A stretch of 32,772 bases of DNA from an uncultured Bacillota bacterium (GCA_947088415.1 CAMUGK010000002.1:1-32772); one strand, 5' to 3'. Positions 2,688-27,040 are shown, numbered from the stretch's first letter. Notes: generated by a model not told the origin, from the sequence alone. Numbers and translations are program-made.

Positions 2688-2758
2688 ACCCCAGGGGGAT
2701 CTAAATCTCTACGAATTCAGTCTTTAGAGCGGGTCGGCAGTCGTATACAAATTTTCGC

Positions 2759-3155: not shown

Positions 3156-3170
3156 ACATTGGAGGTATTA

Positions 3171-3389: not shown

Positions 3390-3400
3390 GGAGAAAAATT

Positions 3401-4792: not shown

Positions 4793-4860
4793 TTAAATGC
4801 TTAGGAGAAAAATCTCTTAGGGATTTTTTGTTGTAAAAATTATACGATTTTTTTAATTTG

Positions 4861-4869
4861 TGCTATAAT
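4861..4869 (+). promoter_or_regulatory. Extended -10 promoter element (TGcTATAAT) for the NACHT gene
   Basis: TGCTATAAT lies 18 nt upstream of the ATG at 4887. It follows an AAAAATC/GATTTTT hairpin located after the integrase stop codon. Confidence 0.45.
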
Positions 4870-4886
4870 TCAATTAGGAGAAGCAT

Positions 4887-8777: not shown

Positions 8778-8790
8778 CCAGCGTCTTTTT
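8764..8790 (+). terminator. Rho-independent terminator of the NACHT gene
   Basis: AAAAGACGCT (8765-8774) pairs with AGCGTCTTTT (8780-8789). The stop codon lies in the loop and a T-run follows. Confidence 0.7.
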
Positions 8791-8798
8791 GTGTAAAT

Positions 8799-8844
8799 TG
8801 GTGAGAGTAAGAAGATTTGAACTTCCGACCTGTCGCTTAGGAGG
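8799..8844 (-). pseudogene. Orphan 3' half of a tRNA-Arg(CCU): anticodon loop to CCA. Acts as an att junction.
   Basis: The reverse complement reads CCTCCTAAG-CGAC-AGGTC-GGAAG-TTCAAAT-CTTCT-TACTCTC-A-CCA. No matching 5' half is adjacent: the upstream sequence GGTGGCTAATTGCC cannot form the anticodon or D stems. Confidence 0.75.
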
Positions 8845-9090
8845 GGCAATTAGCCACCGAAGTCCTATTGAATAACTTTTGAAATACACATATCTATTTG
8901 TATTATCAATTAACTTTTCATAGTATAATACAAAATTTGTGCTTTTGTCAAAAACTTCAAATAACTTTTGTTCCATGAGTAGCATTTTTAGTATGGTATG
9001 AAAGTTATAAATGACTTACAAACCGTCTTTACTCTTTAACTTAAATAAAAATTAAAACATCAGGGTTGATGTTGAGTTAAGGAGATTAAA

Positions 9091-9963: not shown

Positions 9964-9986
9964 ACTGCCTTTTAAGAAGCATTGAT

Positions 9987-10013
9987 ATTTAATATAATAA
10001 ATTTATATTAAAT
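9987..10013. repeat. AT-rich 11-bp hairpin just downstream of rep, plus a nearby direct repeat CCTATTTGCA x2
   Basis: ATTTAATATAA (9987-9997) pairs with TTATATTAAAT (10003-10013). CCTATTTGCA occurs at 10036-10045 and 10070-10079. Confidence 0.4.
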
Positions 10014-10149
10014 AATTTATATCAGCCATTTTAGACCTATTTGCAGTGGCGAGAAAGTTTGTGACAGTCCCTATTTGCAAAATAATAGCCCCAAAGTTAT
10101 AATTTTTATATAAACTAAGAGCAAAGTGTGATATAATGCAAAGGGAGGC

Positions 10150-10974
10150 ATGAAAATGAAACAAATAAAAACTTCCATCTATTGGTTTATTTTAATTTGT
10201 AGTGTTTTAATGGCGGTTTTAATAACAATAGCAACTACTATGGGTTCAAATAATTTAATTATAGGACTTATTTCAGGTGTTTTTTCTAGTGCTATGGTTG
10301 TTTTGATTGACCTTTTTATAAAATATTTTATAAGTAAAAAAGAAACATTTCAAACTATTACAAATTCAGTTTATAATTTATTTTCACAAGTAATCTTATT
10401 TATTTCAAGTATAGAAGATTTTGGGTATAATGATTTTGAATTATGGTATGAAAATATCCAAAACAAACGAAAAGAATTACTAAAAAGTTCAAGGGACTTA
10501 ATAGATAACATTTGCGATGTTTACTGCTTTTTCAAAAAAGGATATAAACTTGTTGGAGAACTTTATCAACTTTTTTATACATTAGACTTCTATGAGTTAT
10601 TAGATTTCTCAAATAGCGAAATTACTTTGGAAATTCAAAATACTATAATAGAAATTGAAGACATGGACTTACTAAAATATAGAGATAAAATAAGGCTTAA
10701 AAACAAATTTGAAAAATTAAAAGATAATTATAAAAATCAATTAAAAGAAGGAATTAAAAAATTAAACGAATACCTTCATCCAGTAGAAAATATTTATAAA
10801 GATATGTGTAAAAAATATTTCAATGAAAGTATTTATAACAATGCTAAAAAGTTTTTGAATAATTTAGATTTTGAATTAAATGATAAAAAATTAAATTATG
10901 CCTTTAGAGAGATTTTTATAAAGCAAGATATTCAATTAAAATATTTGAGTAAAGATAAAAAAGACTTGCAGTAA
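10150..10974 (+). CDS. Membrane protein with two N-terminal TM helices and a helical cytoplasmic domain of about 200 aa
   Basis: TM segments IYWFILICSVLMAVLITIATTM and LIIGLISGVFSSAMVVLIDLFI. The ATG at 10156 has better spacing to GGAGG (10144-10148) than the ATG at 10150. A terminator hairpin is shared with the convergent XRE gene. Confidence 0.6.
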   Translation: MKMKQIKTSIYWFILICSVLMAVLITIATTMGSNNLIIGLISGVFSSAMVVLIDLFIKYFISKKETFQTITNSVYNLFSQVILFISSIEDFGYNDFELWYENIQNKRKELLKSSRDLIDNICDVYCFFKKGYKLVGELYQLFYTLDFYELLDFSNSEITLEIQNTIIEIEDMDLLKYRDKIRLKNKFEKLKDNYKNQLKEGIKKLNEYLHPVENIYKDMCKKYFNESIYNNAKKFLNNLDFELNDKKLNYAFREIFIKQDIQLKYLSKDKKDLQ

Positions 10975-11001
10975 TTTGCAGGTCTTTTGTTTTATTTGTT
11001 T

Positions 11002-11301
11002 TTAAGCAATGTAATAATAGCACTTTTTTTTATCAGGGCTGGCGGTTTTAAGTAAGTCTATAATCTCTTTGTCTTTGCGATATGCACTTATCTCATAATA
11101 AAAAAATTCAGAAACAGATGAATCACAAGCGTCTATAATTTCAAGCAGTGCTGAAACTGAAGGCTCAAAACTATCATTTTTAGACTCTAGACGGGAGATA
11201 TAGGCGGGATTTTTACCTATTTTCAAACTTAAATCACGAGCAGATAAACCTTTGTCTGACCTTAATCTACTTATACGAAAAATAACCTCTTTTTTATCCA
11301 T
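11002..11301 (-). CDS. XRE-family HTH transcriptional regulator
   Basis: LRSDKGLSARDLSLKIGKNPAYISRLESKN is a classic Cro/CI-type HTH. The gene is divergent from the operon at 11466-12944. Confidence 0.85.
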   Translation of the reverse strand: MDKKEVIFRISRLRSDKGLSARDLSLKIGKNPAYISRLESKNDSFEPSVSALLEIIDACDSSVSEFFYYEISAYRKDKEIIDLLKTASPDKKKCYYYIA

Positions 11302-11396
11302 AAATCCACCTCACAAATATACTAAAATTATAAATGATAAGCGGCTTTATGGCACTTTGCAACACTTGTAAAAATTACATAGTATGAAACTATTTT

Positions 11397-11445
11397 GCAC
11401 TTATAAGTGCATTTGTTTGCTTTTACATTCATTTTGTGCTATTAT
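11397..11445 (+). promoter_or_regulatory. Perfect 14-bp palindrome (candidate operator) abutting the operon promoter
   Basis: GCACTTATAAGTGC at 11397-11410. -35 TTGCTT at 11417-11422, a 17-nt spacer, and an extended -10 TGcTATTAT ending at 11445. Confidence 0.45.
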
Positions 11446-11465
11446 ACTTACATGAGAGGTGCAAA

Positions 11466-12302
11466 ATGAAAATTATTTTAAGTAAAAAGGGGTTAGACAG
11501 TAGCAACAGTGTTAAGCCTATAACTATTGATAATAAGCAAATGATATTTTTGCCTATTCCAAGTAATCAAGATTATGATAATGCAAGATATAGCGAAGTG
11601 TTTGAAAATAAAATATCATTGCTTTTCTATTGTATGGAAATGGGTATTGATTTTGGTTATATAGACAACAAAAAATTGCCAATGAATGGAACTACAAACT
11701 GCCATTTAGACCCACAACTTATAAATTATTTTGGTTATGATAATTTCAAAGGTAGTTTTGGGCAAGTGAAAGCCGCCCAGAAGCATTTAGAAAATAAACA
11801 AGTGCAAGCAGGCGATTTGTTTTTGTTTTATGGTTGGTATACCGATAATAAAACACATAAAGAAAAGCATACTCTTTTTGGCTATTTGCAGGTTGGAGAG
11901 ATTATAAAAGTTAATGAGTTGACTGCAAGCCAAAAGCAAAAAATAGTTGATAAATATCCTTGGCTACACCATCAACCTCATTGGTATAGCCAAGAAACAA
12001 ATAATACAATTTACATAGCAAGGGAAACCTGTTCATTTAATAAAAATATCAAAGGTTTTGGAATGTTTAAATATGATAAAGAATTAGACTTGACAGCAAA
12101 AGATATTGGCACAAAAACCTGCTGGGAAATTTCAGCATTGAAAAATTGTAAAGTATCTTTCAAAGACCATAATGGAAACGACAGTTTTAATGATTTGGGA
12201 CAATTTAGAGTTGCTGACCGCTGTCAAGAGATAGTTATTGAAGAGTGTCCGCAGGCTGAAAAGTGGGCTATAAACTTAATTAAAAAATATAAAAGGAGAT
12301 AA
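11466..12302 (+). CDS. Conserved-looking protein of unknown function (279 aa), possibly Nmad3-like
   Basis: The track ORF starts at a GTG (11436) inside the -10 box. The ATG at 11466 has GAGAGGTG upstream. The N-terminus MKIILSKKGLDSS..., CHLDPQL, FGQVKAAQKHL and GDLFLFYGWY resemble my recollection of Nmad3 (nucleotide-modification-associated domain 3) proteins. This is from memory and unverified. Confidence 0.6.
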   Translation: MKIILSKKGLDSSNSVKPITIDNKQMIFLPIPSNQDYDNARYSEVFENKISLLFYCMEMGIDFGYIDNKKLPMNGTTNCHLDPQLINYFGYDNFKGSFGQVKAAQKHLENKQVQAGDLFLFYGWYTDNKTHKEKHTLFGYLQVGEIIKVNELTASQKQKIVDKYPWLHHQPHWYSQETNNTIYIARETCSFNKNIKGFGMFKYDKELDLTAKDIGTKTCWEISALKNCKVSFKDHNGNDSFNDLGQFRVADRCQEIVIEECPQAEKWAINLIKKYKRR

Positions 12303-12304
12303 AA

Positions 12305-12625
12305 ATGAAAAACATAAGTTTAACAGTAGAATTCAAAAATCCAGAAAAAGAATTGCAAGAACAATTACAAAGAAATGGTGCAAGAAATATAAGCATAAGA
12401 AGAAATTTTGACGGCTGTCTTGAAGTGTCTTACAAAATTGTTTGTGCTGACCCACAAAAAGAAATTGAAAAAATGCTGTCATCATCTGGCGGACAAAGTG
12501 TTAGAAGTTCGTCAAGTTATAATGGTGCAAGATTTGATATGAAAATTGACGATCGTCTTGATGAAAGAGAGTTCAAAAAGCAAATTATAGACGCTCTCCG
12601 CAGAGCAGGTTTTAGAGCAAACTAA
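12305..12625 (+). CDS. Hypothetical protein (106 aa), closely coupled to the upstream gene
   Basis: The ATG lies 2 nt after the upstream TAA, with AGGAG inside the upstream 3' end. No motif recognised. Confidence 0.6.
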   Translation: MKNISLTVEFKNPEKELQEQLQRNGARNISIRRNFDGCLEVSYKIVCADPQKEIEKMLSSSGGQSVRSSSSYNGARFDMKIDDRLDEREFKKQIIDALRRAGFRAN

Positions 12626-12639
12626 AAACAACTAAAAAT

Positions 12640-12674
12640 AACCGTCTCCGTTATGATTAGTAGGAGGCGGTTTT
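12640..12674 (+). terminator. Terminator-like hairpin whose 3' arm contains the RBS of the next ORF
   Basis: AACCGTCTCC (12640-12649) pairs with GGAGGCGGTT (12663-12672), with one G-T pair. TTTT follows, then the ATG at 12675. Confidence 0.5.
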
Positions 12675-12944
12675 ATGTTTTTAGAAATTTACGATAAGTT
12701 TGACAAAAAGTTAGGAGATGTTTTTGTTAGTGAAGATGGCCATATGTCTTTATGTTTTGACAATAAAAATAATTTGCTAGGCAGAATTGTTGGAGATGAG
12801 AAAGTTTTATTTGCCTTTGATGAAGATGATAGGTATTTAGGAAGATATGATAGTCTTTATACTTACGATAGGCATGACAACTTGTTAAAAAGGGGTAATT
12901 TAATATATAACATGTTTTATCTCACCATTAAACACATTAGATAG
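12675..12944 (+). CDS. Small repeat-containing protein (89 aa), possibly 4-fold beta-flower-like
   Basis: Internal repeats: DNKNNLLGRIVGDE, DEDDRYLGRYDS and DRHDNLLKRGN. The family name is recalled from memory only. Confidence 0.5.
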   Translation: MFLEIYDKFDKKLGDVFVSEDGHMSLCFDNKNNLLGRIVGDEKVLFAFDEDDRYLGRYDSLYTYDRHDNLLKRGNLIYNMFYLTIKHIR

Positions 12945-13323
12945 CCCTGCAAGTGCCTGCAAATGGCGTGAGAACAGGCAAAAGAGTTTTTATCGGTAAA
13001 TCGACCATGAAAATATAAAAAGCCATACAAAAGGCTAAATAATAGGAAAAGTCCGCAAACAGAAAGCGGTCTTTTTTTATGCTATTTTTTATCTTAAAAC
13101 CATGACATGGTAAAACATCGCTTCAATAACCCCTGTCGTGTGAAGTCATATGTAAACAACGAGTTGGGATAGAGCAAAAAATCACTATAGTCCTGTGTGC
13201 ACATTAAAAGCACACGAAAATTTACGGGATTTTTCGGGAAATACGGCAAAATGGTTGCCTTCTCTGCCTGCATCGGCTTTAATGAGTTCTAACTCGAAAA
13301 ACTCCCATTACAAAAGGAGGTAA

Positions 13324-13518
13324 ATGGTTATGTATAGGACGATAGAGCAAGCCTATGCTTACTTAAAAGAACTTGACCCTAACACAGCACTAACAAAATA
13401 TTATTTGAGAGTTTTGTGTCAAACAAACCAAATCACAGTGCTTAATATAGGCTCAAAGTTTTTAATCCAACTTGAAAGTTTATGCGACTTTCTAAAAATC
13501 AAATTATGTGAAAACTAA
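13324..13518 (+). CDS. Excisionase-like HTH protein
   Basis: Homologous to the ORF at 3171..3389 and located upstream of the integrase. The ATG at 13330 has better spacing to GGAGG (13316-13320) than the ATG at 13324. Confidence 0.6.
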   Translation: MVMYRTIEQAYAYLKELDPNTALTKYYLRVLCQTNQITVLNIGSKFLIQLESLCDFLKIKLCEN

Positions 13519-13536
13519 AAATATAAGGAGTAAAAA

Positions 13537-13953
13537 ATGGAAATCAAAAATTTAGGAAAGTATGTAAGTGTGTTAGACAATGGCTTAATGCAAATGATTG
13601 GAGAAAAACCTATTGAATATACACTACATGCTCAATTTAGAAGCACAGTCACAGGTGCGATAACAAGATTTGAAAAAGTTGTAAAAAATACAAAAGAATT
13701 TGAAGGAAAAGAACTTAAAGAGTTTTTATATTCAAACCTTCAAGAATTTATTAAAGAACGAGAGTTTAGGTTTATATATAACTTTATACCTTATGAGTCA
13801 GCGGAATATGAATTCCCTAACAAAAAAGGCAAGGTAAAGACATGGAAAGCAAAAGTGTTTTATAGTGAAAGCGAAAAAGAAAGTCATAAAATGTTTTTGA
13901 AATTAGCACAAGCAAGAGAAGAACAAAAGTTAAGAAAAAAAGGAGTAATGTAA
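13537..13953 (+). CDS. Hypothetical protein (138 aa)
   Basis: AAGGAG RBS. The stop codon lies 1 nt before the integrase ATG. No motif recognised. Confidence 0.6.
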   Translation: MEIKNLGKYVSVLDNGLMQMIGEKPIEYTLHAQFRSTVTGAITRFEKVVKNTKEFEGKELKEFLYSNLQEFIKEREFRFIYNFIPYESAEYEFPNKKGKVKTWKAKVFYSESEKESHKMFLKLAQAREEQKLRKKGVM

Positions 13954-13954
13954 A

Positions 13955-15376
13955 ATGGCAACATATGAGAAAAGAACAGCAAAGAAGGACGGTCATATCA
14001 CATATGGCATACAAATCAAAGTTAAGGACTATTTGGGTAGAGATAAATTTGTAAACACTACTTGGAAAAACCCTAACAACCTTACAGGCGAAAGAGCAAA
14101 AAAGGCTGCGATTGCTTTTGGTGAAACATGGGAAGCAGAATATAAAAACGGTCATACCCATAAGTTAAGCAATGCAAGTTTTAATCAAGTAGCAAATGAG
14201 TGGCTACGAAATGTTAAACACAGAGTATCATTAAACTATATTTTACGATCGGAAGATTGTATTAAAAGAATGACCGAATACTTTGGAGATGTAAGATTTG
14301 TAGATTTAAGGGCTCATGAAATCCAACAATTTATCACATACCTAAACGAATATACTTACAAAACTATAACCGCAAAAGTAAAAGAATATAAACTTGATGA
14401 GTTTAAGGAAAGTATAAAAGCAAATGGCGGTGCGAGAAAGGCAGAGAGAGATGGAATAATATCACGCCCTGTGTTTTACTATGCTACACATGGAGAACCT
14501 ATTGCATATAGCAGTGCCGAGAAAATTTGTAATTTATTAAAAATAAGTATAAAAGAATTTTTTGAAAAGATTGTAGTTGAAAAAGGTTATGCAAAAGAGA
14601 CAATACTAAAATATCAACACACATTAAGTGCAATTTTCAATTATGCAATCAAAAATGAGTTAGTGACTTCAAATTATGCTTCAAGTGTTTACACAAAAGA
14701 TAGCATAGGCGGAAGAAAAACCGAAGAAGCCAAAATATTAACTAACCAAGAATATGACAAATTATTAGAAACTTTGAAACTTGCGGACAACAAGTTAGAC
14801 AACAAAGGACAACCACTTAATCTTATTTGGGAAACTATACCTTTGTATGTTATGACCCAATTAGGACTTAGAACTGCCGAAGTGTGCGGTCTTAAATGGG
14901 AAGATATAGATTTAGATGAAAGAGTTTTGAGTGTATGCAGAGATAGAGTTTACACTCCAAAATATGGTGTTTATGATAGAGATACAAAAACTGCTAAATC
15001 AACAAGAAAATTATTTATAAGTGATTTGTTAGCCGAAAAATTACAATTATTCAAAGATAAATATGAAGAACTTAAAAAAGCCGATAAAAAGTTTGATAAA
15101 AGAGGCTATATCTTTTGTAATGTTGATGGCACACCAAAGTTCCCACAATATCTTAACTATTTACTACAAAAATATCTTTTAGAAGCAAATGTCACAGTTG
15201 TATCAAATCATAAGATACGACACACATGGATAACAAGACTTATCACAAATGGTGCACCTGTAAACGGAGTTGCACAAATGGCAGGTCATGCCGACAAAAA
15301 TACAACATTAAAGATATACACTCACTTTTCAAAAGATGTTAAGGCATCACAAGAATTGTTGACAAAATATTTGTAA
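13955..15376 (+). CDS. int: Tyrosine recombinase / integrase
   Basis: GLRTAEVCGLKWEDID, HKIRHTWIT, AGHADKNTTLKIYTH. Same architecture as the integrase at 3401..4792, including the shared segment ISRxxF..AT.G......AEKIC. Confidence 0.9.
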   Translation: MATYEKRTAKKDGHITYGIQIKVKDYLGRDKFVNTTWKNPNNLTGERAKKAAIAFGETWEAEYKNGHTHKLSNASFNQVANEWLRNVKHRVSLNYILRSEDCIKRMTEYFGDVRFVDLRAHEIQQFITYLNEYTYKTITAKVKEYKLDEFKESIKANGGARKAERDGIISRPVFYYATHGEPIAYSSAEKICNLLKISIKEFFEKIVVEKGYAKETILKYQHTLSAIFNYAIKNELVTSNYASSVYTKDSIGGRKTEEAKILTNQEYDKLLETLKLADNKLDNKGQPLNLIWETIPLYVMTQLGLRTAEVCGLKWEDIDLDERVLSVCRDRVYTPKYGVYDRDTKTAKSTRKLFISDLLAEKLQLFKDKYEELKKADKKFDKRGYIFCNVDGTPKFPQYLNYLLQKYLLEANVTVVSNHKIRHTWITRLITNGAPVNGVAQMAGHADKNTTLKIYTHFSKDVKASQELLTKYL

Positions 15377-15410
15377 TGTTATTGAGACACACAAAAACTT
15401 AATAAAATAA

Positions 15411-15443
15411 AATGCTAGGTGCGAATACTCGTATCCTAGCATT
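15411..15443. terminator. Bidirectional terminator hairpin between the integrase and the HEPN gene
   Basis: AATGCTAGG (15411-15419) pairs with CCTAGCATT (15435-15443). Confidence 0.6.
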
Positions 15444-15465
15444 GATAATGTTTCGACATGAATTA

Positions 15466-16116
15466 TTATGGTCTTTTTATTGATTGAAGAATAGAAACTA
15501 ATTTTTCAGTATCTAAACTTTTTCTAGTAAGATAGCCAAGTTGATAATCTTCAAACAATATATCTATTGAATTGCCAAAAGTATTATGACAAGAACTAAT
15601 TTTGTCATGCCCTAGCAATTCAAACATATTGTTCATTAAGTCGAAGATATTTTCAAGTAAAGCAATTATTTTTGCAGAGTCTAATTTTAAGAGAAATATG
15701 TCTGAGTTTGCATTTCGCAGTTTTTTATCAAAATGTGCTAAATAATTATCTCTAAATGTTCTTAATTTTGACAACTCATCTTTATTGTCGCTTATCAGAG
15801 TGTCAATATTTTTAGCAAGTTCTTTTAGTTTTAGGTCGTTTTGTTTATCTAGAATTTTATTTGAATTTATAAAGTTTGAAACACTTTGAATAGATAAGGA
15901 ATCAGGGTCGCCATCAAATAATTTAGCAGCAGTTAACATAGATTGTTCTTTTAATGAATGAGAAATATGTCCTAAGTCATTTTTTAGAATGCCATAAGAC
16001 GACTTATCTATTTCATACCAATCGTTTATTCTTTCATTCAAGTAATAGTTGTTTTGGACTTCACTAATTTTAGAATGTAAAAATTTAAGTGTTTTAGTCA
16101 AAATATCAGAATTCAT
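15466..16116 (-). CDS. HEPN-domain protein, AbiU2-like abortive-infection candidate
   Basis: The internal ATG at 16116 has AGGTGA upstream. The track start at 16149 lacks an RBS. An Rx4-6H motif, RDNYLAH, lies at nt 15733-15753 within LRTFRDNYLAHFD. The protein is all-alpha and Leu/Asn/Lys-rich. Confidence 0.6.
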   Translation of the reverse strand: MNSDILTKTLKFLHSKISEVQNNYYLNERINDWYEIDKSSYGILKNDLGHISHSLKEQSMLTAAKLFDGDPDSLSIQSVSNFINSNKILDKQNDLKLKELAKNIDTLISDNKDELSKLRTFRDNYLAHFDKKLRNANSDIFLLKLDSAKIIALLENIFDLMNNMFELLGHDKISSCHNTFGNSIDILFEDYQLGYLTRKSLDTEKLVSILQSIKRP

Positions 16117-16162
16117 TATCACCTCACAAAATAAAAAGTATCTAGCCAAATAGATACTTAAA

Positions 16163-16237
16163 TGGTGTTCCCAAGCCGACTCGAACGGCTGACTAACCCT
16201 TAGGAGGGGTTTGTAATATCCACTTTACTATGGGAAC
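16163..16237 (-). tRNA. tRNA-Arg (anticodon CCU), intact, 75 nt with encoded CCA
   Basis: The reverse complement folds as GTTCCCA TA GTAA AGTGGATA TTAC A AACCC CTCCTAA GGGTT AGTC AGCCG TTCGAGT CGGCT TGGGAAC A CCA. All four stems are Watson-Crick paired. Confidence 0.9.
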
Positions 16238-19157: not shown

Positions 19158-19652
19158 TTAATTCTTACTTTTCGAGTTTTTGTTTTTTCTACCTTTGCGT
19201 CTGCTTGGCGAAGTAAATAAAGATAGGAAAGCAAATACAAAGGAAGAGATAAATCCATAACCAATTGAAGTTACAACTGCTGGGGTTGAATTTTTATAAA
19301 GATAAATTGCAAGCAAAACTGCAGAACAAATCATAAAGAAGAAGAAAGCACAAGAGAGCAATCTAACTTCAACCTTTGGTTGAGCATTTCCACAAGCCAA
19401 GCCTATCAAATTGACAAGGGCAAGCAAAATCATAATGCAACAAAACAACATGGCAAGAATAATGCAAATTTTGGCTGCAAGCATATATGGGGAATTGTTT
19501 GTTGTAAAATCTAATATATCAAAAGTTCCAATTTTGTTGTAGGCTTGGTTTGCAATGTCAGCTCCGCTGCCAGAATAAGCCCAAAAAACAGGGTAAGAAA
19601 ACATTGTGAGGGCTAAAACACCAAACAATATTGTAAAAACAGAAGTAACCAT
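19158..19652 (-). CDS. Polytopic membrane protein with a Lys/Arg-rich C-terminal tail
   Basis: The ATG at 19652 is preceded by AAAGGAGAG. Four or five hydrophobic segments are visible. Confidence 0.6.
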   Translation of the reverse strand: MVTSVFTILFGVLALTMFSYPVFWAYSGSGADIANQAYNKIGTFDILDFTTNNSPYMLAAKICIILAMLFCCIMILLALVNLIGLACGNAQPKVEVRLLSCAFFFFMICSAVLLAIYLYKNSTPAVVTSIGYGFISSFVFAFLSLFTSPSRRKGRKNKNSKSKN

Positions 19653-19789
19653 AAATCTCTCCTTTTTGTTTATAATAACATTATTGAAACAATTTGTCAA
19701 TAGTTTAACTTGCTTTTGGGAAAGATTTCAACAAAAGAAAGCAAAAAAAATAGTGAGATTTCTCACAAAATAACCAATAATTGGAAATT

Positions 19790-19999
19790 TTAATAGTCAA
19801 TTCTTCCAAGCATGTAGTCGGCAGAAACATTAAAGAAATCGCATACTGCCTTAATTGCATAAATGCCAGGTTCTCTTAAACCATTTTCCCATAAACTTAT
19901 AATAGATTTGCTTACTTTAAGTTCTTTAGCCAAAGCAACTTGACCAATACCTTTTTCTTTTCTGAGTTCTCTTAATCTTTTCCCAAATATATTTTCCAT
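19790..19999 (-). CDS. XRE-family HTH regulator (69 aa)
   Basis: LRKEKGIGQVALAKELKVSKSIISLWENG. Confidence 0.85.
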   Translation of the reverse strand: MENIFGKRLRELRKEKGIGQVALAKELKVSKSIISLWENGLREPGIYAIKAVCDFFNVSADYMLGRIDY

Positions 20000-20136: not shown

Positions 20137-20256
20137 ATGAAAAAGAAGAAAAATGAGAAAAAGATATTTAAAAGTAAAAATGACCCGCTTGGTTCTTATA
20201 CAGGAATTGGACTTATTGAAAATCAAGAACCTGTTCAGGATGCCGACGATTTATAA
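20137..20256 (+). CDS. Possible 39-aa ORF below the track cutoff
   Basis: Reads MKKKKNEKKIFKSKNDPLGSYTGIGLIENQEPVQDADDL. There is no clear RBS. Its 3' end overlaps the cwlD stop codon by 6 nt. Confidence 0.3.
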   Translation: MKKKKNEKKIFKSKNDPLGSYTGIGLIENQEPVQDADDL

Positions 20257-20943
20257 AAACTTCATGATTCCGCCAAGGACTGCAAAACAAAGTTTTTTCA
20301 TATAAGATTCTTGTTGTAAAAGTTTTTCTTCATCTGGATTAGACAAAAAACCAAACTCAACCAAAATTGCAGGCTTGTCAGTGCAATTTAACACGAAGAA
20401 GTCGCCAACAGACGGCAGTGTTTTTGAATTTTTGTTTGCTTCATAAAGCGAAGTTTGCACCTCACCTGCAAAAGTTTTACCAAGCTCATTGCCTTTTGCA
20501 TAATAAACCTGAGCACCTTTGCAAGAAGATAATCTAAAACTATTCATATGAATGCTGACAACAAGGTCGGCGTTAGAACCTTCAATAATGCTTTTGCGTT
20601 TTTCCATTTCACTTTTCTTTTTGTTAGGGGCAGAAGGGGAATATAATCCGTTCTCATTATTTCTTGTCATAACAACCCTAAAACCCATATCTTGACATTG
20701 GGCTTGCAGACATTTTGCAAAAGCAAGATTAAGGTCACTTTCTTTAACACCTGTAATTTTACCTTCTGCACCACCATCAATTCCGCCATGCCCCGCATCA
20801 ATCACAATGGTGTGAAGTGGCTTTGGCGTCGTGCTGGCTTTGATTGGAAAATAGGTCGCACAAAACGCACCAATTGCTAGAAAGCACAACAAAATGGCAA
20901 AAATTGTCTTTTTCTTAATTGTTAAAAATGTAGTTTTCATCAA
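20251..20943 (-). CDS. cwlD: N-acetylmuramoyl-L-alanine amidase (Amidase_3), CwlD-like germination-specific amidase
   Basis: N-terminal TM segment. VIDAGHGGIDGGA, VMTR, EKRKSIIEGSNADLVVSIHMNS, GAQVYY and VEFGFLSNPDE are colinear with Bacillus CwlD as I recall it. Confidence 0.75.
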   Translation of the reverse strand: MMKTTFLTIKKKTIFAILLCFLAIGAFCATYFPIKASTTPKPLHTIVIDAGHGGIDGGAEGKITGVKESDLNLAFAKCLQAQCQDMGFRVVMTRNNENGLYSPSAPNKKKSEMEKRKSIIEGSNADLVVSIHMNSFRLSSCKGAQVYYAKGNELGKTFAGEVQTSLYEANKNSKTLPSVGDFFVLNCTDKPAILVEFGFLSNPDEEKLLQQESYMKKLCFAVLGGIMKFL

Positions 20944-21057
20944 GATATTTTATTATCAACTTTCAAAATAAATGCAAAAAGTTGGCACACTTTCTTGAAA
21001 TGGCAATATTTTCATGATATAACCTTGTCTAAGATTAAAAAATCTTTTGAAAAGGAG

Positions 21058-21798
21058 ATGAAAATGATTAAAAGTGAACAATTACTTTCACTTTTCTCTC
21101 AAGACGAAGAAGTCTATTACGAAGAAGAAAAGCGAAAGAAGAAACAAAAACTTGTGCGTAACGAGTTTGAAAAATGTGGAAAATACGGAATGCCACTGAT
21201 TAAGAAACAAAAAATTGATTTAGATAAGATTGAGCTTCTGGGTTATATAAAAACAAAATCAAACGACGAAGAAAATAAAAACAAAACCATACATTTCTTC
21301 ACTTATGATTGGAATTTCAATAATGTCTATGAAAAACCAGAGCAAGCACTTGAAAAACTTGACCAATACTATGCCCTACTCACACCAGAGTTCAGCACTT
21401 ACAAAGACATGCCTCTTGCGAGACAAATTGACAGTGTTTTTAAAAATCGCTGGTGCGGTGCATTTTGGCAGAAACAAGGTATGCTGGTCATTCCTACAAT
21501 TTCATGGGGCTCTTATGGTTGTTTTGATTTCTTTTGTGATGGTGTTGAAGAAGGCTCTGTTGTGGCAGTTTCAACTTATACAAGAGAAGATAATAAAAAA
21601 GGCTTCATGGAAGGGTATGAAATTATGATGCAAAAAATTAAACCAAGTGCAATAATTTGCTATGGCACCCCTTTTGAAGAAATGAAGGGAAATATAAAAG
21701 CAATTGACCCTTTTAATAGTGAAGAACTTATCAAAAAAATTGGCCTTGCCGAGTTTATGAAAAAGAAACTTGCCAGCGAACTTTATCCAGAAATTTAG
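21058..21798 (+). CDS. DUF4417-like protein
   Basis: The track start (TTG at 20995) coincides with a -35 box: TTGAAA, 17 nt, TATAAC at 21018-21023. The real start is the ATG at 21058 or 21064, after AAAGGAG. Motifs HFFTYDWNF, LLTPEFSTYKDMP, NRWCGAFWQKQG and VIPTISW match my recollection of DUF4417. Confidence 0.55.
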   Translation: MKMIKSEQLLSLFSQDEEVYYEEEKRKKKQKLVRNEFEKCGKYGMPLIKKQKIDLDKIELLGYIKTKSNDEENKNKTIHFFTYDWNFNNVYEKPEQALEKLDQYYALLTPEFSTYKDMPLARQIDSVFKNRWCGAFWQKQGMLVIPTISWGSYGCFDFFCDGVEEGSVVAVSTYTREDNKKGFMEGYEIMMQKIKPSAIICYGTPFEEMKGNIKAIDPFNSEELIKKIGLAEFMKKKLASELYPEI

Positions 21799-21807
21799 GA
21801 GCAAAAT

Positions 21808-22626
21808 ATGGAAGAATTCAAACTTACAATCAATATGCTCCCAAAAGGAGCATGGGGAAGCGATTTTAGTAAAACCTTGTCTAAGAAAGATTGGGAAAAA
21901 TTGCGAGATTATGCATTAAAACGAGCAAAAGGAAAATGTGAAATATGTGGATTTGTAACAGATGCCCTTGATGTACATGAAGAATGGGTTTTTGATACAA
22001 AAAATAAAACACAAACTTTAAAATATATCAAGGCAATTTGCTCTCGTTGTCATGGTGTTAAACATTTCAAAAATTCAGTTAGGCTTGGCTTTGGAGAAGA
22101 TGCAGAAAAGCATTTTATGAAAGTCAACAATGCTTCTGAGATGCAGTTTGCTTCTCACTTAAATAAGACTTTACTTGAATATGAAGAGAGAAACAAAACT
22201 CATCGCTGGAAAATAGTTGCGGATTTAGAAACGTTTGGTGGCAAAGGAATTGAAATAAAGCAAAACAATATTCCTCTTATTAAAAACCCTTATGAAAATA
22301 TAAATTGGGATAGTCTGTCATACGAAGATACAAAACATTTATTTAATATCACAAGAAATGATAATTTGATAGGAGCACCAAAAATTGTTTCTATTGAAGT
22401 AAATAACTATCAAGGCGAAATTAAAATTAAATCGCTGTTTGCCGACAGAATCGAGTGGTTTTTAGATAAAATAAAGATAAAAACAACATACCACACTGCT
22501 GGACTATTCAAAACGGAATTCAAAGTAAAAAATTTGATTGGAAAAAAATTAAATTTCAAACTTATTGGAATTGGCGGCAAAACAATTTCAAAACCATTTG
22601 AACTTTTGCCACAGGAGGTGTTATAA
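21808..22626 (+). CDS. Protein with an N-terminal HNH/zinc-finger-like domain and an unknown C-terminal domain
   Basis: CEICG...LDVHEEW...AICSRCHGVKH has the pattern CxxC...HE...CxxCHxxxH. The stop codon overlaps the next ATG as TAATG. Confidence 0.55.
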   Translation: MEEFKLTINMLPKGAWGSDFSKTLSKKDWEKLRDYALKRAKGKCEICGFVTDALDVHEEWVFDTKNKTQTLKYIKAICSRCHGVKHFKNSVRLGFGEDAEKHFMKVNNASEMQFASHLNKTLLEYEERNKTHRWKIVADLETFGGKGIEIKQNNIPLIKNPYENINWDSLSYEDTKHLFNITRNDNLIGAPKIVSIEVNNYQGEIKIKSLFADRIEWFLDKIKIKTTYHTAGLFKTEFKVKNLIGKKLNFKLIGIGGKTISKPFELLPQEVL

Positions 22627-22916
22627 TGGGAATGTGTAAACCAAGTGGTGGGAAATTTGATGTTTATGGACCTTATAAACATTCTTTAAAAAAGGATGGT
22701 ATACCAAATACTAGATTAGACTACTACGACGAGCAAACAGACGAATTACTACAACAACGCTGGTATGGTCCAGATGGACTTGCAATTTGGGATAGGGATT
22801 GGAAACATAACAATCCAAATGGTAATCATAAATTCCCGCATGATCATCCTTGGGATTGGTCTAAGAAAATTCCAAGACAAGATTTTATTAATAATATTAA
22901 TAATAGTTATTGTTAA
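22626..22916 (+). CDS. Small His/Trp-rich protein (96 aa), translationally coupled. Toxin-like candidate.
   Basis: TAATG overlap with the upstream gene, with AGGAGGTG 8 nt upstream. Motifs TRLDYYDE...RWYGPDG (YD-like) and FPHDHPWDW. Confidence 0.55.
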   Translation: MGMCKPSGGKFDVYGPYKHSLKKDGIPNTRLDYYDEQTDELLQQRWYGPDGLAIWDRDWKHNNPNGNHKFPHDHPWDWSKKIPRQDFINNINNSYC

Positions 22917-22930
22917 AAAAGGAGGAAAAT

Positions 22931-23383
22931 ATGAAAAAAAACTTATTAGAAAAAAATATACAAAAAAAATGTGCTGTTTGCAAAAAAGTTTATTTGACAT
23001 CAGAATTGGACTTAACTCCATGTCCATATTGTGGATGGTATAACGATTCTATGTGTGAGGAGAATCCTGACAAAGTTATATATCGCAACCTTATTTCTTT
23101 TAATAAGGCTAAGCAATTCTATTCAGATAGGAAGCCTTTAAAGCCCGACTTAATTGATTTTCTTGAAGCATTTGAATTTTATGGAGAAACGGGTTTTGAA
23201 TATAATAATATTGACTTTGCTTTGTTTAGACATAGAGAATATGGTATTGAAATGAGTTGGAGTCCAGAGCCAAATGGCACAATTTATTTCAAAGACAAAG
23301 ACGACTTTATACAAAATGCAAAGATAGGCAATGAATTTATTCGAGAAATATGGGACAAAGTTGACGATCCAAGATATTTATAA
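22931..23383 (+). CDS. CPCC-family cysteine-rich protein (immunity-like candidate)
   Basis: The ATG at 22931 follows AAGGAGG. CAVC...CPYCGWYND..EENPD...NLISFNKAKQFY matches the CPCC family pattern as I recall it. Confidence 0.6.
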   Translation: MKKNLLEKNIQKKCAVCKKVYLTSELDLTPCPYCGWYNDSMCEENPDKVIYRNLISFNKAKQFYSDRKPLKPDLIDFLEAFEFYGETGFEYNNIDFALFRHREYGIEMSWSPEPNGTIYFKDKDDFIQNAKIGNEFIREIWDKVDDPRYL

Positions 23384-23511
23384 GATAAGAAATAATAAGC
23401 GGACAAGTAAGTTCGCTTTTTTATTTTATGATACAAAATTTATTAAAACATATATAGGCCTCGCGAAACAATTTCAAAAACCTTTGAACTTATGCTGCAG
23501 AAGGTGCTATA

Positions 23512-23801
23512 ATGGGAATGTGTAAACCAAGTGGTGGGATAAGCAACCAAACTGGACGAGTAGGATCTTTGCCAAGAATATGGTTGCCAAATACAAGGAT
23601 AGATTTGTATGATGAAAAGGAAATTTGTTGCAACAAGGATGGTATGGACCAGATGGCAGAATTATTTGGTATCGTGACTGGTCACATGGTGGAGGATATC
23701 ATGATTGGCCACACGACCACTATGTTAATTGGGATAATCCCAAAGACCCTAGACCACTTTATATAGGTCCAAATGGTGAAAAAAACTCGGATTTTTGTTG
23801 A
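23512..23801 (+). pseudogene. Frameshifted paralogue of the ORF at 22626..22916
   Basis: Same start, MGMCKPSGG. Homology continues in another frame after nt 23613-23619 (…GNLLQQGWYGPDGRIIWYRDWSH…PHDHYVNWD…, stop at 23799-23801). One extra A in the A4 run at 23615-23618 would restore the frame. Confidence 0.6.
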
Positions 23802-24268
23802 AAGGAGAATTATATGAATATAGAAAAAAATACAAAAAATCATGTGAAGTATGTCAAAAAGAAATTTATGTAGATATTTATAAACAAGGGAAATGTCCTT
23901 ATTGTGGTTGGTGGAATTGTTTTTTAAATGAAGAAAATCCTGATGAAGTAGCATTACCTAACACTCTTTCTCTAAATAAGGCACGACAACTTTACAAAGA
24001 AAAAAGGCCATTTGAACCAGACTTTGACGATTTTATTAAAGCTCTGTATAGTTACGGTGAAATGCAATTTGAATACAATGGGACATATTATGCAGTTGAA
24101 TTTGTAGGAAGAAGCAAAAATAATTTTGATATTCAGCTTTATAATTCAAAGTCACGAGAAAAGTTTCTATTTAAAACAAAAGAAGATTTTAAAAATAATG
24201 CCAAGGTTGAAGGAAAACTATTAAAAGAAATCTGGGATGAAACGACTGATAGATATTGGCTACAATAA
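23795..24268 (+). CDS. Second CPCC-family paralogue. Its RBS-linked ATG is out of frame.
   Basis: CEVC...CPYCGWWN..EENPDE...SLNKARQLY. The RBS AAAGGAG (23801-23807) serves the ATG at 23814, which is in the +1 frame relative to the ORF. One extra A in the A7 run at 23824-23830 would join them. Confidence 0.5.
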   Translation: MLKGELYEYRKKYKKSCEVCQKEIYVDIYKQGKCPYCGWWNCFLNEENPDEVALPNTLSLNKARQLYKEKRPFEPDFDDFIKALYSYGEMQFEYNGTYYAVEFVGRSKNNFDIQLYNSKSREKFLFKTKEDFKNNAKVEGKLLKEIWDETTDRYWLQ

Positions 24269-24312
24269 TAGATAAAAGGTGCACTGTTTAAGGTGCATCT
24301 TTTTCTCTTAAT

Positions 24313-24420
24313 TTAAAAAACATACTGTCCTTTCTTGACATCAGCCCCGCCATGCCCCGCATCAATTACGATTGTGTGCAAAGGTTTGGGCGTTGCACTT
24401 GTTTTAAAACATAATTGAAT
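24313..24420 (-). pseudogene. Relic of the 5' part of a cwlD-like amidase gene
   Basis: The reverse complement encodes …LCFKTSATPKPLHTIVIDAGHGGAD…. cwlD has …KASTTPKPLHTIVIDAGHGGID…. There is no start codon and a stop occurs soon after. Twenty identical nucleotides are shared between 24347-24366 and 20783-20802. Confidence 0.6.
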
Positions 24421-24484
24421 GCAAAGGGTGGCGGTTTTTAAATTTTGGACGAAGGGATTGATTTTTGATAATAACGATATAATT

Positions 24485-24517
24485 AAAAACCCCGTCAGGT
24501 TTTCTGACGGGGTTTTT
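24485..24517. terminator. Strong bidirectional terminator
   Basis: AAAACCCCGTCAG pairs with CTGACGGGGTTTT, with A- and T-runs on either side. Confidence 0.75.
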
Positions 24518-24531
24518 AATGACGTTAAATT

Positions 24532-24765
24532 TTAGTCAATCCAAAGAACTTTGTCGGCTACAAGAATTGTGATGATGTCAACAAGCCAGAAAATTACTGG
24601 ACAGAAGATTAACATCAAAACTGCAAGTACAATGCCAACTGTTGATTTCTTTTCAACAGATCTGCAAAGACGATAAACAGCCCAAACAATGTCAAGGAAA
24701 GGAAGTGCTAAAAGCACTTTTACAATCTTTGGAAAGTTGTCAAATGTTTTGATAAGTTCGCTCAT
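24532..24765 (-). CDS. Small two-TM membrane protein (77 aa)
   Basis: Two hydrophobic segments, AGGAG RBS and the downstream terminator. Confidence 0.6.
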   Translation of the reverse strand: MSELIKTFDNFPKIVKVLLALPFLDIVWAVYRLCRSVEKKSTVGIVLAVLMLIFCPVIFWLVDIITILVADKVLWID

Positions 24766-24947: not shown

Positions 24948-26147
24948 TTAAATACCTTTAACACCTTCAATGCGAGTTATGAGATATTTAGGGTTGTCTG
25001 TTGCAAAAGCAATAGTATTTGTTGTTGTGTCAAAAGTGTAAGTAAAGCCACGGCTTATAGCAACGCGTTTTTGTGAATAATATAAAATTCCTTTAAGATA
25101 ATGCACAGTTTTTCCATTTGTGGAAAGTGAACTCATTACAAAATCATTTTTTGGTCGGTTGGCAGTTGGCAATTCTATAAAAGAATAAAGGCTGTTTAGG
25201 GTGGCAAATATGCGAATATAGTCATATTCACTATCTGTCCAATACACATTATTACCAGTAGGAATGCCAGTAGTAAAGCCTTTGTTGATTGCTTCATCTG
25301 TGCTTTTCATGTCGTAGATAACTTCAATTGCTCTTCCTCCGCCAGAAGAAGGTCTATTTTCGACAGCACTAACTCTTGAAGCCAAACTTTCAATATTTAA
25401 TTTGTTGTTTCTAATGCTTTCGGTATGGTCTTGCAAATCTGCCGCCTGAAGTTGAATTTGTGAATGGTTGTCACTTATGTCATAAGTCATGTTGGTAAGT
25501 TTTGTTTGATATGCTGAAAGGGTGTTGTTTATTGAGCCAACCGAAGTGCTTAAAGAAGAAACATTGCCTTTTATAATAGTTATTTCGTCGGCATTTGCTT
25601 TAATCCTGTCGTCAAACCCATTAATTGCAGTGTTCAAAAAGGCGATATCTTCTTCATGTTTGACCGCTTTGTTTGAAATAGTTGAAATATTGGTTTCGTT
25701 TGTTTCAACCTTTTGAGAAAGTGCTGAAATGTTGGCTTGATTAGAATTTGTTTTATTTGAAATGGTAGAAATATCACTTTCATTTTTGCTAACTTTTGTT
25801 GTCAAGTTTGAAATGTTGTTTTCACTGTTTTCGACTTTTTCAGATAAAGATGTTATATTGTTTTGATTTGTTTCCACCTTACCAGAAAGGGTTTGCAAAT
25901 TCTCGTTTAATGTTGAAGACTCACTTTCAACCGAGTTTAAGTTGGTTTTTATTGTTTGAATTTCGCTTTCAAGACTCTCAACTTTATTTTGACAATCGGT
26001 TATTTTCTTTTCAAGTTCTTGAAGTTGACCTTTATTTCCACCACCTAAAATTTCATCTTTTAAACTTGGCAATGTATGCTTAATCAAATACCAAAGTTCC
26101 TTTTCTAATTTAGATAGTTTTTCTTGCAATTCTTCTTGCGTGTTCAT
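24948..26147 (-). CDS. Coiled-coil protein with 14-residue repeats and a globular C-terminal domain (phage tail-fibre-like)
   Basis: Repeats LSGKVETNQNNITS, LSEKVENSENNISN, LTTKVSKNESDIST, ISNKTNSNQANISA and LSQKVETNETNIST. An SSGGG hinge and a C-terminal domain of about 130 aa follow. No signal peptide. AGGAGG RBS. Confidence 0.6.
   Translation of the reverse strand: MNTQEELQEKLSKLEKELWYLIKHTLPSLKDEILGGGNKGQLQELEKKITDCQNKVESLESEIQTIKTNLNSVESESSTLNENLQTLSGKVETNQNNITSLSEKVENSENNISNLTTKVSKNESDISTISNKTNSNQANISALSQKVETNETNISTISNKAVKHEEDIAFLNTAINGFDDRIKANADEITIIKGNVSSLSTSVGSINNTLSAYQTKLTNMTYDISDNHSQIQLQAADLQDHTESIRNNKLNIESLASRVSAVENRPSSGGGRAIEVIYDMKSTDEAINKGFTTGIPTGNNVYWTDSEYDYIRIFATLNSLYSFIELPTANRPKNDFVMSSLSTNGKTVHYLKGILYYSQKRVAISRGFTYTFDTTTNTIAFATDNPKYLITRIEGVKGI
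25638..25889. repeat. 42-nt periodic tandem repeats encoding the 14-residue units
   Basis: On the plus strand, TGAAAT(A/G)TTG recurs every 42 nt. Confidence 0.6.
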
Positions 26148-26224: not shown

Positions 26225-26863
26225 CTAAACTGATTTCTTTTTCTTTTTTGTTTTTTTCATGAACAACAACAATAAAATAATTGTCACGCAAGATGCGGCT
26301 ACAACAATTCCAGTTATAACACCTGCGTTAATTCCGTATGGAGATAACTCTTGTGTCTTAATATAACCATAAATCAACTTTCCATTTTCTCCAACAAAAC
26401 AAACTGCAGTCATATCATTTTGTTTGTTGTATCCTTGATATAGATAAAGCTCCTTGCCTTTATTTAATTTAGCAATAATTTTTGTTTGGTCAAGGTCATA
26501 GACCTGACAGCCATCAATTTCAACACTTGCATTGAATACTGGATAAACCTCTTGCGACAAAATGTTAAATGTGATATATCTTGCATAAACATATCCTTGC
26601 ATTTCTTTATATTCAACTTTAATAAAATTATCATTTTCTTCTTCAAGCACTTTCAACTTTTCGCCATGAGCAATTGTGACAGGCTCATTGTTTTGATTTA
26701 AAATAGGCTTTTCAAAATTGCCTTCTTCAAAAAGTTTAACTTCGTTTGCAATGACCATAACTTCGCCAAGGTCAGCAAAAACATAACCGCTATTAAATTG
26801 TAGTGGCAAAAATATTGCAAAGCACATTAACAAGCACAAAACCCCGATAAAAATTTTTCTCAT
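26225..26863 (-). CDS. Secreted protein with SH3b-like domains, a C-terminal TM anchor and a poly-Lys tail
   Basis: Signal peptide MRKIFIGVLCLLMCFAIF. GYVYARYI and GYIKTQEL are SH3b-like strands. C-terminal ITGIVVAASCVTIILLLLFMKKTKKKKK. Confidence 0.55.
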   Translation of the reverse strand: MRKIFIGVLCLLMCFAIFLPLQFNSGYVFADLGEVMVIANEVKLFEEGNFEKPILNQNNEPVTIAHGEKLKVLEEENDNFIKVEYKEMQGYVYARYITFNILSQEVYPVFNASVEIDGCQVYDLDQTKIIAKLNKGKELYLYQGYNKQNDMTAVCFVGENGKLIYGYIKTQELSPYGINAGVITGIVVAASCVTIILLLLFMKKTKKKKKSV

Positions 26864-27040
26864 GACAAAATATTATCATAAAACCTTATTTCTAGTCAAA
26901 TAGTTTAATTAAAAAGCAACTTGCACCTAATGCTGAAAACTTTAAATATTAACTTGGTAAAAGGTTGCCTTGAACATTAAAGTTTAATAATGAATTGAAT
27001 AATATTTTTCTTTTTACACACACTAACAGCGGGAGGAAAT

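Follow-up and report, generated by a model that had tools for sequence, protein, structure and literature searches.

The window analysed in this work is a stretch of 32,772 nucleotides (nt) from an uncultured Bacillota bacterium (GCA_947088415.1, CAMUGK010000002.1:1-32772), in which a block of 3.5 kb lies between the sporulation gene cwlD and a dead copy of part of the cwlD 5' end. We propose that this block is probably cargo that an integrative element brought into cwlD through site-specific recombination, i.e. a recombinase-less derivative, flanked by attachment (att) sites, of a family of elements that use a serine recombinase. The proposal is based on a junction that recurs with differing cargo in other gut Clostridia, on a conserved stretch of DNA at this junction, and on serine recombinase genes that lie beside it in three of the relatives.

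The repeat pair and its recurrent junction

Both borders of the block carry the 20-mer CCGCCATGCCCCGCATCAAT, which occurs exactly twice in the window (20783-20802 and 24347-24366); a third copy was not found there even with 3 mismatches, and 0 are expected (100 shuffles). The ungapped similarity of the two copies covers 67 nt at 76% identity (20775-20841 versus 24339-24405), and its extension beyond the 20 nt lies almost wholly toward the 5' side of cwlD. Read on the minus strand, the copies give ...KASTTPKPLHTIVIDAGHGG in cwlD and ...KTSATPKPLHTIVIDAGHGG in the right-hand copy, which has no start codon and meets a stop 10 codons past the core (ADVKKGQYVF, then stop). The cargo genes between the copies are all on the plus strand. 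The block contains only DUF4417, HNH, toxin-like and CPCC genes; genes for recombination and transfer are absent, and no integrase, transposase or recombinase was detected inside the block by Pfam, PADLOC, PHROG and other searches of it. The original prediction, made from the window alone, had described the 20-nt identity, its weaker one-sided extension with the two peptides, the dead right-hand copy and a block composed of a DUF4417 gene, an HNH-like gene and two cassettes without integrase or transposase; all of this was borne out, and the pair of exact copies is non-random.

The left copy lies inside a gene of 230 amino acids (aa) on the minus strand (20251-20943) that matches Pfam Amidase_3 at 2e-41. 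Its best NCBIfam match is TIGR02883 (spore_cwlD), at 173 bits and 5e-51, far above other amidases although under the curated cut-off of 221.55 bits. The product has an N-terminal membrane anchor, and sporulation genes (YabP/YabQ, Spo0A_C) lie nearby in relatives.

The features of the block and its borders are listed below; loci from other genomes are designated by L numbers, and the roles given to att sites are those of the integration proposed further on.

20251-20782, minus strand: 3' part of the resident cwlD, codons ~57-230 (Amidase_3, spore_cwlD-like), putative B' side of attR
20783-20802, minus strand: putative attR core, the 20-nt exact repeat (repeat search), coding for IDAGHGG in intact cwlD; here the identity between L005 and L111 goes from ~70% to ~98%
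20803-20994, minus strand: cwlD 5' end, codons 1-~50, start at 20943/20940, with the promoter region; probably element-borne (P arm), as judged from segment identities
20995-21798, plus strand: DUF4417 gene, cargo (PF14386, 2.4e-49), true start likely near 21061
21808-22626, plus strand: 272-aa gene, cargo, with an N-terminal HNH endonuclease domain and a C-terminal beta-sandwich (PHROG 5200, AlphaFold model)
22626-23383, plus strand: cassette 1, a 96-aa toxin-like gene (22626-22916) and a 157-aa CPCC gene (22910-23383) (PHROG 18811, Cys_rich_CPCC)
23463-24268, plus strand: cassette 2, a 3' relic of the 272-aa gene (23463-23539), a frameshifted toxin-like gene (23512-23801) and a 157-aa CPCC gene (23795-24268) (repeat, L111 homologues)
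24272-24312, no strand: hairpin terminator that separates the last cargo gene from the tail, common to L111; window and L111 are near-identical over the tail, the hairpin and the adjoining gene end
24315-24346, minus strand: conserved non-cwlD tail GGCTGATGTCAAGAAAGGACAGTATGTTTTTT, putative P' arm of attL, present at 15 junctions
24347-24405, minus strand: relic of the displaced resident cwlD 5' end (alignment), spanning codons ~35-56 with the 20-nt core, its 5' side missing, putative B arm of attL
24482-24520, no strand: perfect 17-nt inverted repeat, the bidirectional terminator of a 77-aa gene (24532-24765, minus strand), at the edge of an inverted host segment abutting the truncated relic (repeat search, synteny)

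The junction between relic and block was found in 15 copies in 13 loci of different uncultured gut Clostridia, the host cwlD genes of the junction loci being 45-84% identical to that of the window. At every junction the cwlD homology ends at …CAYGGNGG and is followed by the conserved non-cwlD tail GATGTCAAGnnAGGACAG. We accept as genuine the junctions of the window, L001, L003, L005, L008, L015, L092, L096, L099 (two), L111/L112, L114 (two), L117, L118 and L119. A 672-nt contig from another sample (L001) is identical to the window across the relic/block junction. In L003, where cwlD is 75% identical, a frameshifted relic of the 5' end lies 1.3 kb upstream of the intact gene, and is separated from it by two unrelated genes; codons 1-54 are retained in this relic along with the start codon and the promoter. 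The homology to cwlD ends at one and the same nucleotide in both the window and L003 (…CATGGCGG), and past this breakpoint the two relics are like each other (GGGGCTnnTGTCAAnnnAGGACA) and unlike cwlD. Full-length relics with promoter, start codon and membrane anchor are present in L003, L015 and L119.

From the alignment of window and L003 we derived the signature GAYGCNGGNCAYGGNGG-N6-TGTCAA, which among 87 loci occurs at relic junctions only and never in an intact cwlD. A search of a metagenome collection with this signature gave 22 matches, 3 of which are true junctions (L092, L096, L099), the other 19 being fortuitous ones in GC-rich sequence. Less stringent searches and loci obtained later contributed L005, L111/L112, L114 (two), the second L099 copy, L117, L118 and L119. 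The cargo found between relic and cwlD is the following:

L003: proteins of 211 aa and 133 aa (the latter with 113 aa in the contig's gene call)
L005: radical SAM and ATP-grasp proteins
L008: a 484-aa protein
L015: a 194-aa protein
L114: a 101-aa protein
Window and L119: the DUF4417 module, of which L111 has a truncated version

The radical SAM and ATP-grasp cassette of L005 (5814-7836) may be a small peptide-modification locus. At L009 (7380-7470) a full DUF4417 module lies between an SH3 gene and cwlD, with the tail present only as a fragment (TTTGTCAAGAAAAATCACC); its hairpin, GCATATCAATTGATATGC, is of the type GCATATC-loop-GATATGC that is common to L005, L008, L114 and L099. The sequence of this site suggests an older, decayed attL that has lost the relic core.

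The two parts of the window cwlD differ in their closest relatives. The 3' part is 83% identical at the nucleotide level to L002, the closest, and ~72% to others, while the 5' part is 81-86% identical to L005, L003 and L008 and 79% to L002. The discordant segment identity matrices suggest that the two parts have different histories. With one breakpoint in many genomes, differing cargo and a 5' end that differs in history from the 3' part, the idea of the original prediction that the block was inserted in cwlD with replacement of the displaced gene end is supported, and it extends to other genomes.

The conserved tail, the serine recombinases and a model of integration

In the tail, positions +7 to +22 have a mean identity of 81% across 14 junctions, as compared to 82% in the protein-coding core, 46% beyond +34, and 35% against the B' arms, i.e. 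the stretch of intact cwlD genes downstream of the core. The tail is not a conserved peptide, because the motif runs on past stop codons: in L096 it continues unchanged beyond an early stop. A conserved RNA was also rejected; a possible hairpin has 4 bp only, and Rfam matches are sub-threshold and fall on the neighbouring terminator. The tail may bear some resemblance to a SpoIIID box. A XerCD/dif-type site was dropped, since the similarity to dif is unconvincing and the locus lies near the origin, with dnaA only ~4.5 kb away from cwlD in relatives.

The comparison of L005 and L111 bears on what moves. The left flanks of the two loci are 95% identical across ~5 kb and the right flanks 92% across ~3.7 kb, the relics are orthologous (97% over 158 nt, with decay mutations in common), and the 3' parts of cwlD are 95% identical. 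The left switch point is the core/tail junction, from which there are 6 differences in ~35 nt and then unrelated sequence; the cargo is unrelated, the cwlD 5' parts are 69% identical, and on the right ~98% identity is regained between the last core codon and +80 nt. The exchanged unit therefore runs from the tail through terminator, cargo, promoter and cwlD 5' end to the core, which is the segment bounded by the two repeat copies. Neither locus has a recombinase. On sequence grounds the tail thus appears to belong to the insert, as a conserved DNA element that moves with the cargo.

In L099 a second relic, tail and hairpin are followed by a convergent gene that is cut off where the available sequence stops. 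The 246 residues present, from the C-terminus of its product, match Zn_ribbon_recom (2.5e-10) and DUF4368 (8e-6), a domain set that is the C-terminal architecture of clostridial large serine recombinases. Its only relatives in the databases are three gene fragments, and two of these come from ~1-kb contigs (L117, L118) in which the hairpin, the tail and a cwlD relic lie just past the recombinase stop. The L117 junction reads …VHTIVIDAGHGG and then, past the breakpoint, LDVKLGHTFF and a stop; that of L118 reads …YTVVIDAGHGG, then LDVK and a stop. In all three loci the recombinase gene is partial, ends about 40-60 nt from the tail and is convergent on the relic, and the domains represented are Recombinase (PF07508), Zn_ribbon_recom (PF13408) and DUF4368. 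The L099 recombinase is ~47% identical to each of P0121 and P0122, and the recombinases of L099, L117 and L118 share no more than ~47% with one another, therefore the association concerns a family and not one repeated sequence. The third fragment, P0123, includes part of the catalytic domain, which is seen in none of the others, and its best NCBIfam match is the serine recombinase XisF. The absence of a recombinase described in the original prediction accordingly holds for the window copy and not for the family as a whole.

As a side observation, L012, from a Christensenella-related genome, has a gene like those of serine recombinases (11613-12332, 25% identity to P0123) at ~1 kb from cwlD, but on the downstream side, opposite to the site treated here. 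Two tyrosine integrase genes lie 16 kb (3401-4792) and 5 kb (13955-15376) from cwlD on its 3' side in the window, and were rejected as the missing recombinase: they are on the far side of cwlD, beside tRNA-Arg and replication/defence genes.

The block has the borders of inserted DNA of the att type, i.e. it is bounded by two copies that share a short core with the target; the tail would provide the conserved element-side half-site, about 20-25 bp, that is expected beside the crossover, and the att sites of the block match those that adjoin the serine recombinases in relatives. We propose that the element enters cwlD at the sequence coding for ...IDAGHGG (codons ~50-56). The P arm of the element would be its own promoter with a functional copy of cwlD codons 1-56, and the conserved ~30-nt tail would be the P' arm on the other side of the crossover. 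Integration would then give an intact hybrid cwlD made of the element's 5' end and the resident 3' end, with attR (P-O-B') at 20783-20802, and the resident 5' end would be displaced as a dead relic fused to the tail, forming attL (B-O-P') at 24315-24405. The relic with its tail is best read as attL and the cwlD core as attR because a serine recombinase adjoins the tail in L099, L117 and L118. The enzyme would be a large serine recombinase with its gene beside P' in complete elements, whose far side is presumably formed by the 5' end of a cwlD. The window copy may have lost the recombinase or never had one, and would in either case be a non-autonomous att-flanked cassette. The position of the crossover is likewise presumed, and it cannot be placed from the sequence because the P and B arms are identical in the core. 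The peptide TIVIDAGHGG is encoded in P as well as in B, which makes attR similar to attB and attL similar to attP; an occupied site is therefore predicted to stay a target, which would explain repeated insertion and tandem arrays. Tandem arrays of relic and tail are present at two loci. In L099 an older recombinase-less cassette lies outside the recombinase-bearing one, and in L114 two cassettes are stacked, the inner one resembling that of L003. These attL arrays show repeated insertion at one site.

Evidence against integration and competing explanations

There are a number of observations that weigh against site-specific integration and need to be discussed. The window, block included, contains no large serine recombinase, and of the 15 junction copies only 3 have a recombinase beside the tail, while 12 do not. 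The three loci that do (L099, L117, L118) are short or truncated, and the far end of a recombinase-bearing element, i.e. the cwlD 5' end with the intact cwlD, has never been observed. The exact 20-nt identity of relic and intact core is found in this genome only; elsewhere 1-5 or more of 17 positions differ, and the 20-nt sequence was rejected as a strict att core since relic and intact cores differ in other genomes. The window and L119 carry the same element, yet their cwlD 5' parts are not notably similar (69% vs 64%). In the L005/L111 exchange the right boundary is resolved only to ~80 nt and falls in the most conserved stretch of cwlD, which homologous recombination would favour too. Alignment with related genomes had been suggested as a way to find an uninterrupted cwlD and map the breakpoints; a recurrent breakpoint was mapped in this way, but a clean empty site, with the SH3 gene directly beside cwlD and no insert, was not found among the loci examined. 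L002 and L116 have a cwlD without relic or tail, yet their upstream regions differ too. Finally, neither a free or circular form nor a phage or plasmid with the junction was found in public collections. The only IMG/VR match to the junction pattern (L088) is a chance one, and 80 viral loci with related serine recombinases (<=31% identity) contain neither the tail nor a cwlD fragment.

The predominance of small recombinase-less cassettes (12/15 junction copies) is the ground for a further idea that goes beyond integration as such. The recombinase-less blocks might be a population of small cassettes, each consisting of tail, terminator, 1 to 6 cargo genes, promoter and cwlD 5' end, that are excised, exchanged and stacked at the 5' end of cwlD by a serine recombinase acting in trans, so that the locus would serve, in uncultured gut Clostridia, as an integron-like platform founded on a serine recombinase and the 5' end of a gene. 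A recombinase supplied in trans could allow excision or exchange of the cassette and might account for L005/L111. We put this forward as a tentative suggestion with perhaps one chance in its favour against several. An integron proper was rejected: intI is absent at the locus, and a gene 5' end with the conserved tail stands in place of attC.

The strongest competitor dispenses with a site-specific recombinase. A single founding event would have made the relic and the tail, and the relic would since have served as a portable homology arm: incoming DNA with relic, tail, cargo and cwlD would recombine in the RecA manner with the resident cwlD 5' and 3' regions, adding or swapping cassettes, similar to the displacement of orphan toxin tips in rhs/cdi. 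This would suit the lack of a nearby recombinase at most junctions and the fact that the relic and intact-gene cores mostly differ; the breakpoints, moreover, lie in the most conserved stretch of cwlD, where recombination of diverged sequences should resolve, and the mosaic of 5' and 3' parts is compatible with it. However, homologous recombination leaves unexplained why three diverged serine recombinase genes lie exactly at the tail, and why about 16 nt of non-coding tail are conserved like the coding core across taxa with a cwlD identity of only 45-75%. The left switch of L005/L111 is also at the core/tail junction, although a decayed relic core is a poor substrate. We therefore consider this explanation unlikely, and site-specific integration remains the one that we prefer.

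Homing was suggested by the HNH endonuclease domain of the 272-aa protein, which would cut the cwlD core in naive genomes, the expected cut lying between …GGNGG and AATTGATG, after which break repair would copy the block with the relic and the cwlD 3' part as arms. The geometry is suitable in that the homology of the relic ends at the break and the cwlD 3' part lies opposite. On the other hand, junction and tail surround cargo without the HNH gene in L003, L005, L008, L015 and L114, the gene is truncated in L011, L013 and L111, and the module is also found away from cwlD in L121-L124; the HNH family is, in addition, large and uniformly conserved in chromosomes. We regard homing as very improbable, and the original suggestion that the HNH-like protein cleaves the 20-bp site found no support. 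Because it is absent or truncated at otherwise identical junctions, the HNH protein is seen as cargo and is unlikely to have created the insertion.

That the relic is unrelated to the block and flanks it by chance, having been left by a second amidase (e.g. a prophage endolysin) or by cwlD duplicated locally in tandem, is hardly credible: Amidase_3 proteins are indeed frequent, and DAGHGG is a broadly conserved motif, but the relics in L003, L015 and L119 have the cwlD-type promoter, start codon and membrane anchor, relics always end at one nucleotide and are always followed by the same tail, and a longer second amidase, which the original prediction had named as the finding that would refute its insertion reading, was seen at no locus.

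Cargo, known systems and the surroundings of the block

The cargo of the window is a phage-type module of four genes and is unrelated to the insertion mechanism. The DUF4417 protein (PF14386, as listed above) also matches PHROG 940, a phage family annotated as 'nuclease', at 2e-52, and is 92% identical to its homologue in L009 and 86% to that in L119. In the literature DUF4417 appears only as a phage/prophage-enriched domain of unknown function (bioRxiv 10.1101/2025.10.10.680097; PMC8066415; PMC5478533). Residues 4-137 of the 272-aa protein match the phage HNH endonucleases of PHROG 5200 at 2.4e-25, with a weak match to the IscB HNH region, and the remainder is helical and beta-sandwich in an AlphaFold model (pLDDT 91); a sequence-profile search of the PDB and a fold search told nothing more than the beta-sandwich C-domain. 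The protein has >300 homologue clusters of ~272 aa. The ~96-aa proteins form one family (MGMCKPSGG…QQRWY..DG…RDW.H…FPHDH.W.W), and the 96-aa protein matches the C-terminal tip of the large phage family PHROG 18811, annotated as 'toxin', at 7.5e-6. The 157-aa protein of cassette 1 matches Cys_rich_CPCC at 3e-6. PADLOC gave no matches on the cargo.

A 77-nt repeat (22577-22653 and 23463-23539, 90% identical) precedes each cassette, extending from the final 50 nt of the 272-aa gene over the initial 27 nt of the small gene. A 3' relic of the 272-aa gene is accordingly part of cassette 2, i.e. there is a second displacement of a gene end inside the block. The small gene of cassette 2 (23512-23801) is split by a frameshift into open reading frames of 84 aa and 58 aa, with its CPCC partner intact; in L111 the small gene is uninterrupted (97 aa, 91% identical) and the CPCC homologue has 147 aa (76%). 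Longer arrays of such cassettes are present behind truncated 272-aa genes in L013 and L011. The four-gene module is widespread and is not confined to cwlD: L121-L124 (e.g. L122 8193-15255) have it elsewhere, as DUF4417 with proteins of 273 aa, 105 aa and 150 aa. Its neighbours there are genes for a truncated tyrosine integrase, for PemK (toxin) and a MazE-like antitoxin, and for type I restriction-modification, a setting like that of a defence island.

The proposed element can be compared with several known systems. Serine-recombinase elements in genes, the repair of a displaced gene end, recombinase-less att-flanked remnants and tandem accretion are all established ideas. Large serine recombinases insert elements in, or at the end of, protein genes, as in SCCmec (CcrAB, 3' end of rlmH/orfX), SPbeta (SprA, in spsM), skin (SpoIVCA, in sigK) and Tn4451/Tn5397 (TnpX/TndX). 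The cwlD element is similar in that a gene with a TnpX/TndX-type C-terminus (Recombinase, Zn-ribbon and DUF4368), here observed in the relatives, lies at the element edge by the att site, in that the target is within a conserved coding sequence, here of a sporulation gene, and, as in SCCmec, in that the target gene stays intact since the element supplies the displaced end. It differs in replacing the 5' end of the gene with its promoter, start codon and membrane anchor, and not a few 3' codons, in leaving cwlD uninterrupted, unlike skin and SPbeta, and in the missing recombinase of the window copy. The replacement of a gene 5' end together with the promoter is unusual.

A second parallel is with cis-mobilizable elements (CIMEs) and with the tandem accretion of elements derived from integrative and conjugative (ICE) or integrative and mobilizable (IME) elements at the 3' end of fda in Streptococcus thermophilus, where tyrosine integrases are at work. 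As with CIMEs, att-flanked DNA without recombination genes occupies the attachment site of an integrative family, and tandem arrays (L099, L114) are what accretion gives when a new element uses a flanking att site; unlike in CIMEs, the enzyme would be a serine recombinase and the gene end is a 5' end. Thirdly, orphan toxin/immunity cassettes are found downstream of rhs and cdiA genes. There, too, serial displacement leaves dead gene-end fragments, each joined to older cargo, and the cargo is often toxin-like with a small partner protein; the 77-nt repeat of the window with its 272-aa 3' relic follows the same pattern. In contrast to these orphans, what is displaced at cwlD is the 5' end of a housekeeping sporulation enzyme and not the toxic tip of a toxin gene, and the conserved non-homologous arm with an adjacent recombinase points to site-specific recombination.

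If the proposed integration is right, an apparently recombinase-free insertion is explained, and the DAGHGG-coding stretch of cwlD would be an attachment site not described before; the searchable literature gave no report of cwlD in this role. The site would be that of a clostridial family of large serine recombinases, and such enzymes are in demand as tools for genome engineering. Each insertion would replace the regulation and the membrane anchor of a sporulation gene, as the element brings a promoter and 56 codons. Should mobilisation in trans occur as well, the locus would be a new type of platform for the capture of cassettes, with toxin-like and nuclease modules, in gut bacteria known from metagenomes only.

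The surroundings of the block are rearranged. In relatives the gene order is 171-aa gene, 77-aa gene, TMEM164, Spo0A_C, a coiled-coil gene of ~400 aa, an SH3 gene of ~214 aa, then relic, cargo, cwlD, Mntp and a recF-like gene, and further on dnaA and dnaN. Compared with L003, L005, L111 and L114, the window segment 24482-27040 with the SH3 (26225-26863), 399-aa coiled-coil (24948-26147) and 77-aa (24532-24765) genes is inverted, and the TMEM164 and Spo0A_C genes are absent from it. The window relic lacks its first ~30 codons, and the terminator of the 77-aa gene (24482-24520) now abuts it; in L119, with the same element, the relic is full-length and still beside the SH3 gene. The truncation thus looks like a later rearrangement. 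The missing 5' piece of the relic was not found at the other inversion junction (26864-27040), and a splitting of the relic by the inversion was rejected on this ground. Downstream of cwlD (19158-19999) the window and L002 have in common a helix-turn-helix gene (XRE-type) and a 180-aa membrane protein gene, where other relatives have Mntp and the recF-like gene toward dnaA/dnaN. In the lineage of the window, rearrangement has therefore affected the 3' side of cwlD too.

Farther off on the same side, a run of mobile-element genes extends from 206 to 16237:

206-2242: primase-helicase
3401-4792: tyrosine integrase
4887-8777: 1296-aa protein, no family match
9091-9963: Rep ORF2/G2P-like protein
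11436-12302: Nmad3
13955-15376: second tyrosine integrase
15466-16149: AbiU2
16163-16237: tRNA-Arg(CCT), at the end of the run

A tRNA-derived direct (att) repeat that would delimit this run was not found in the window. The run is probably one or two tRNA-associated islands, and its position suggests that it is unrelated to the block. The 399-aa coiled-coil protein between block and SH3 gene is fast-evolving: it is only 31-35% identical to its syntenic counterparts, and the products of the flanking genes are much better conserved (SH3 protein, 47-61%; 77-aa protein, 73-82%; 171-aa protein, ~79%).

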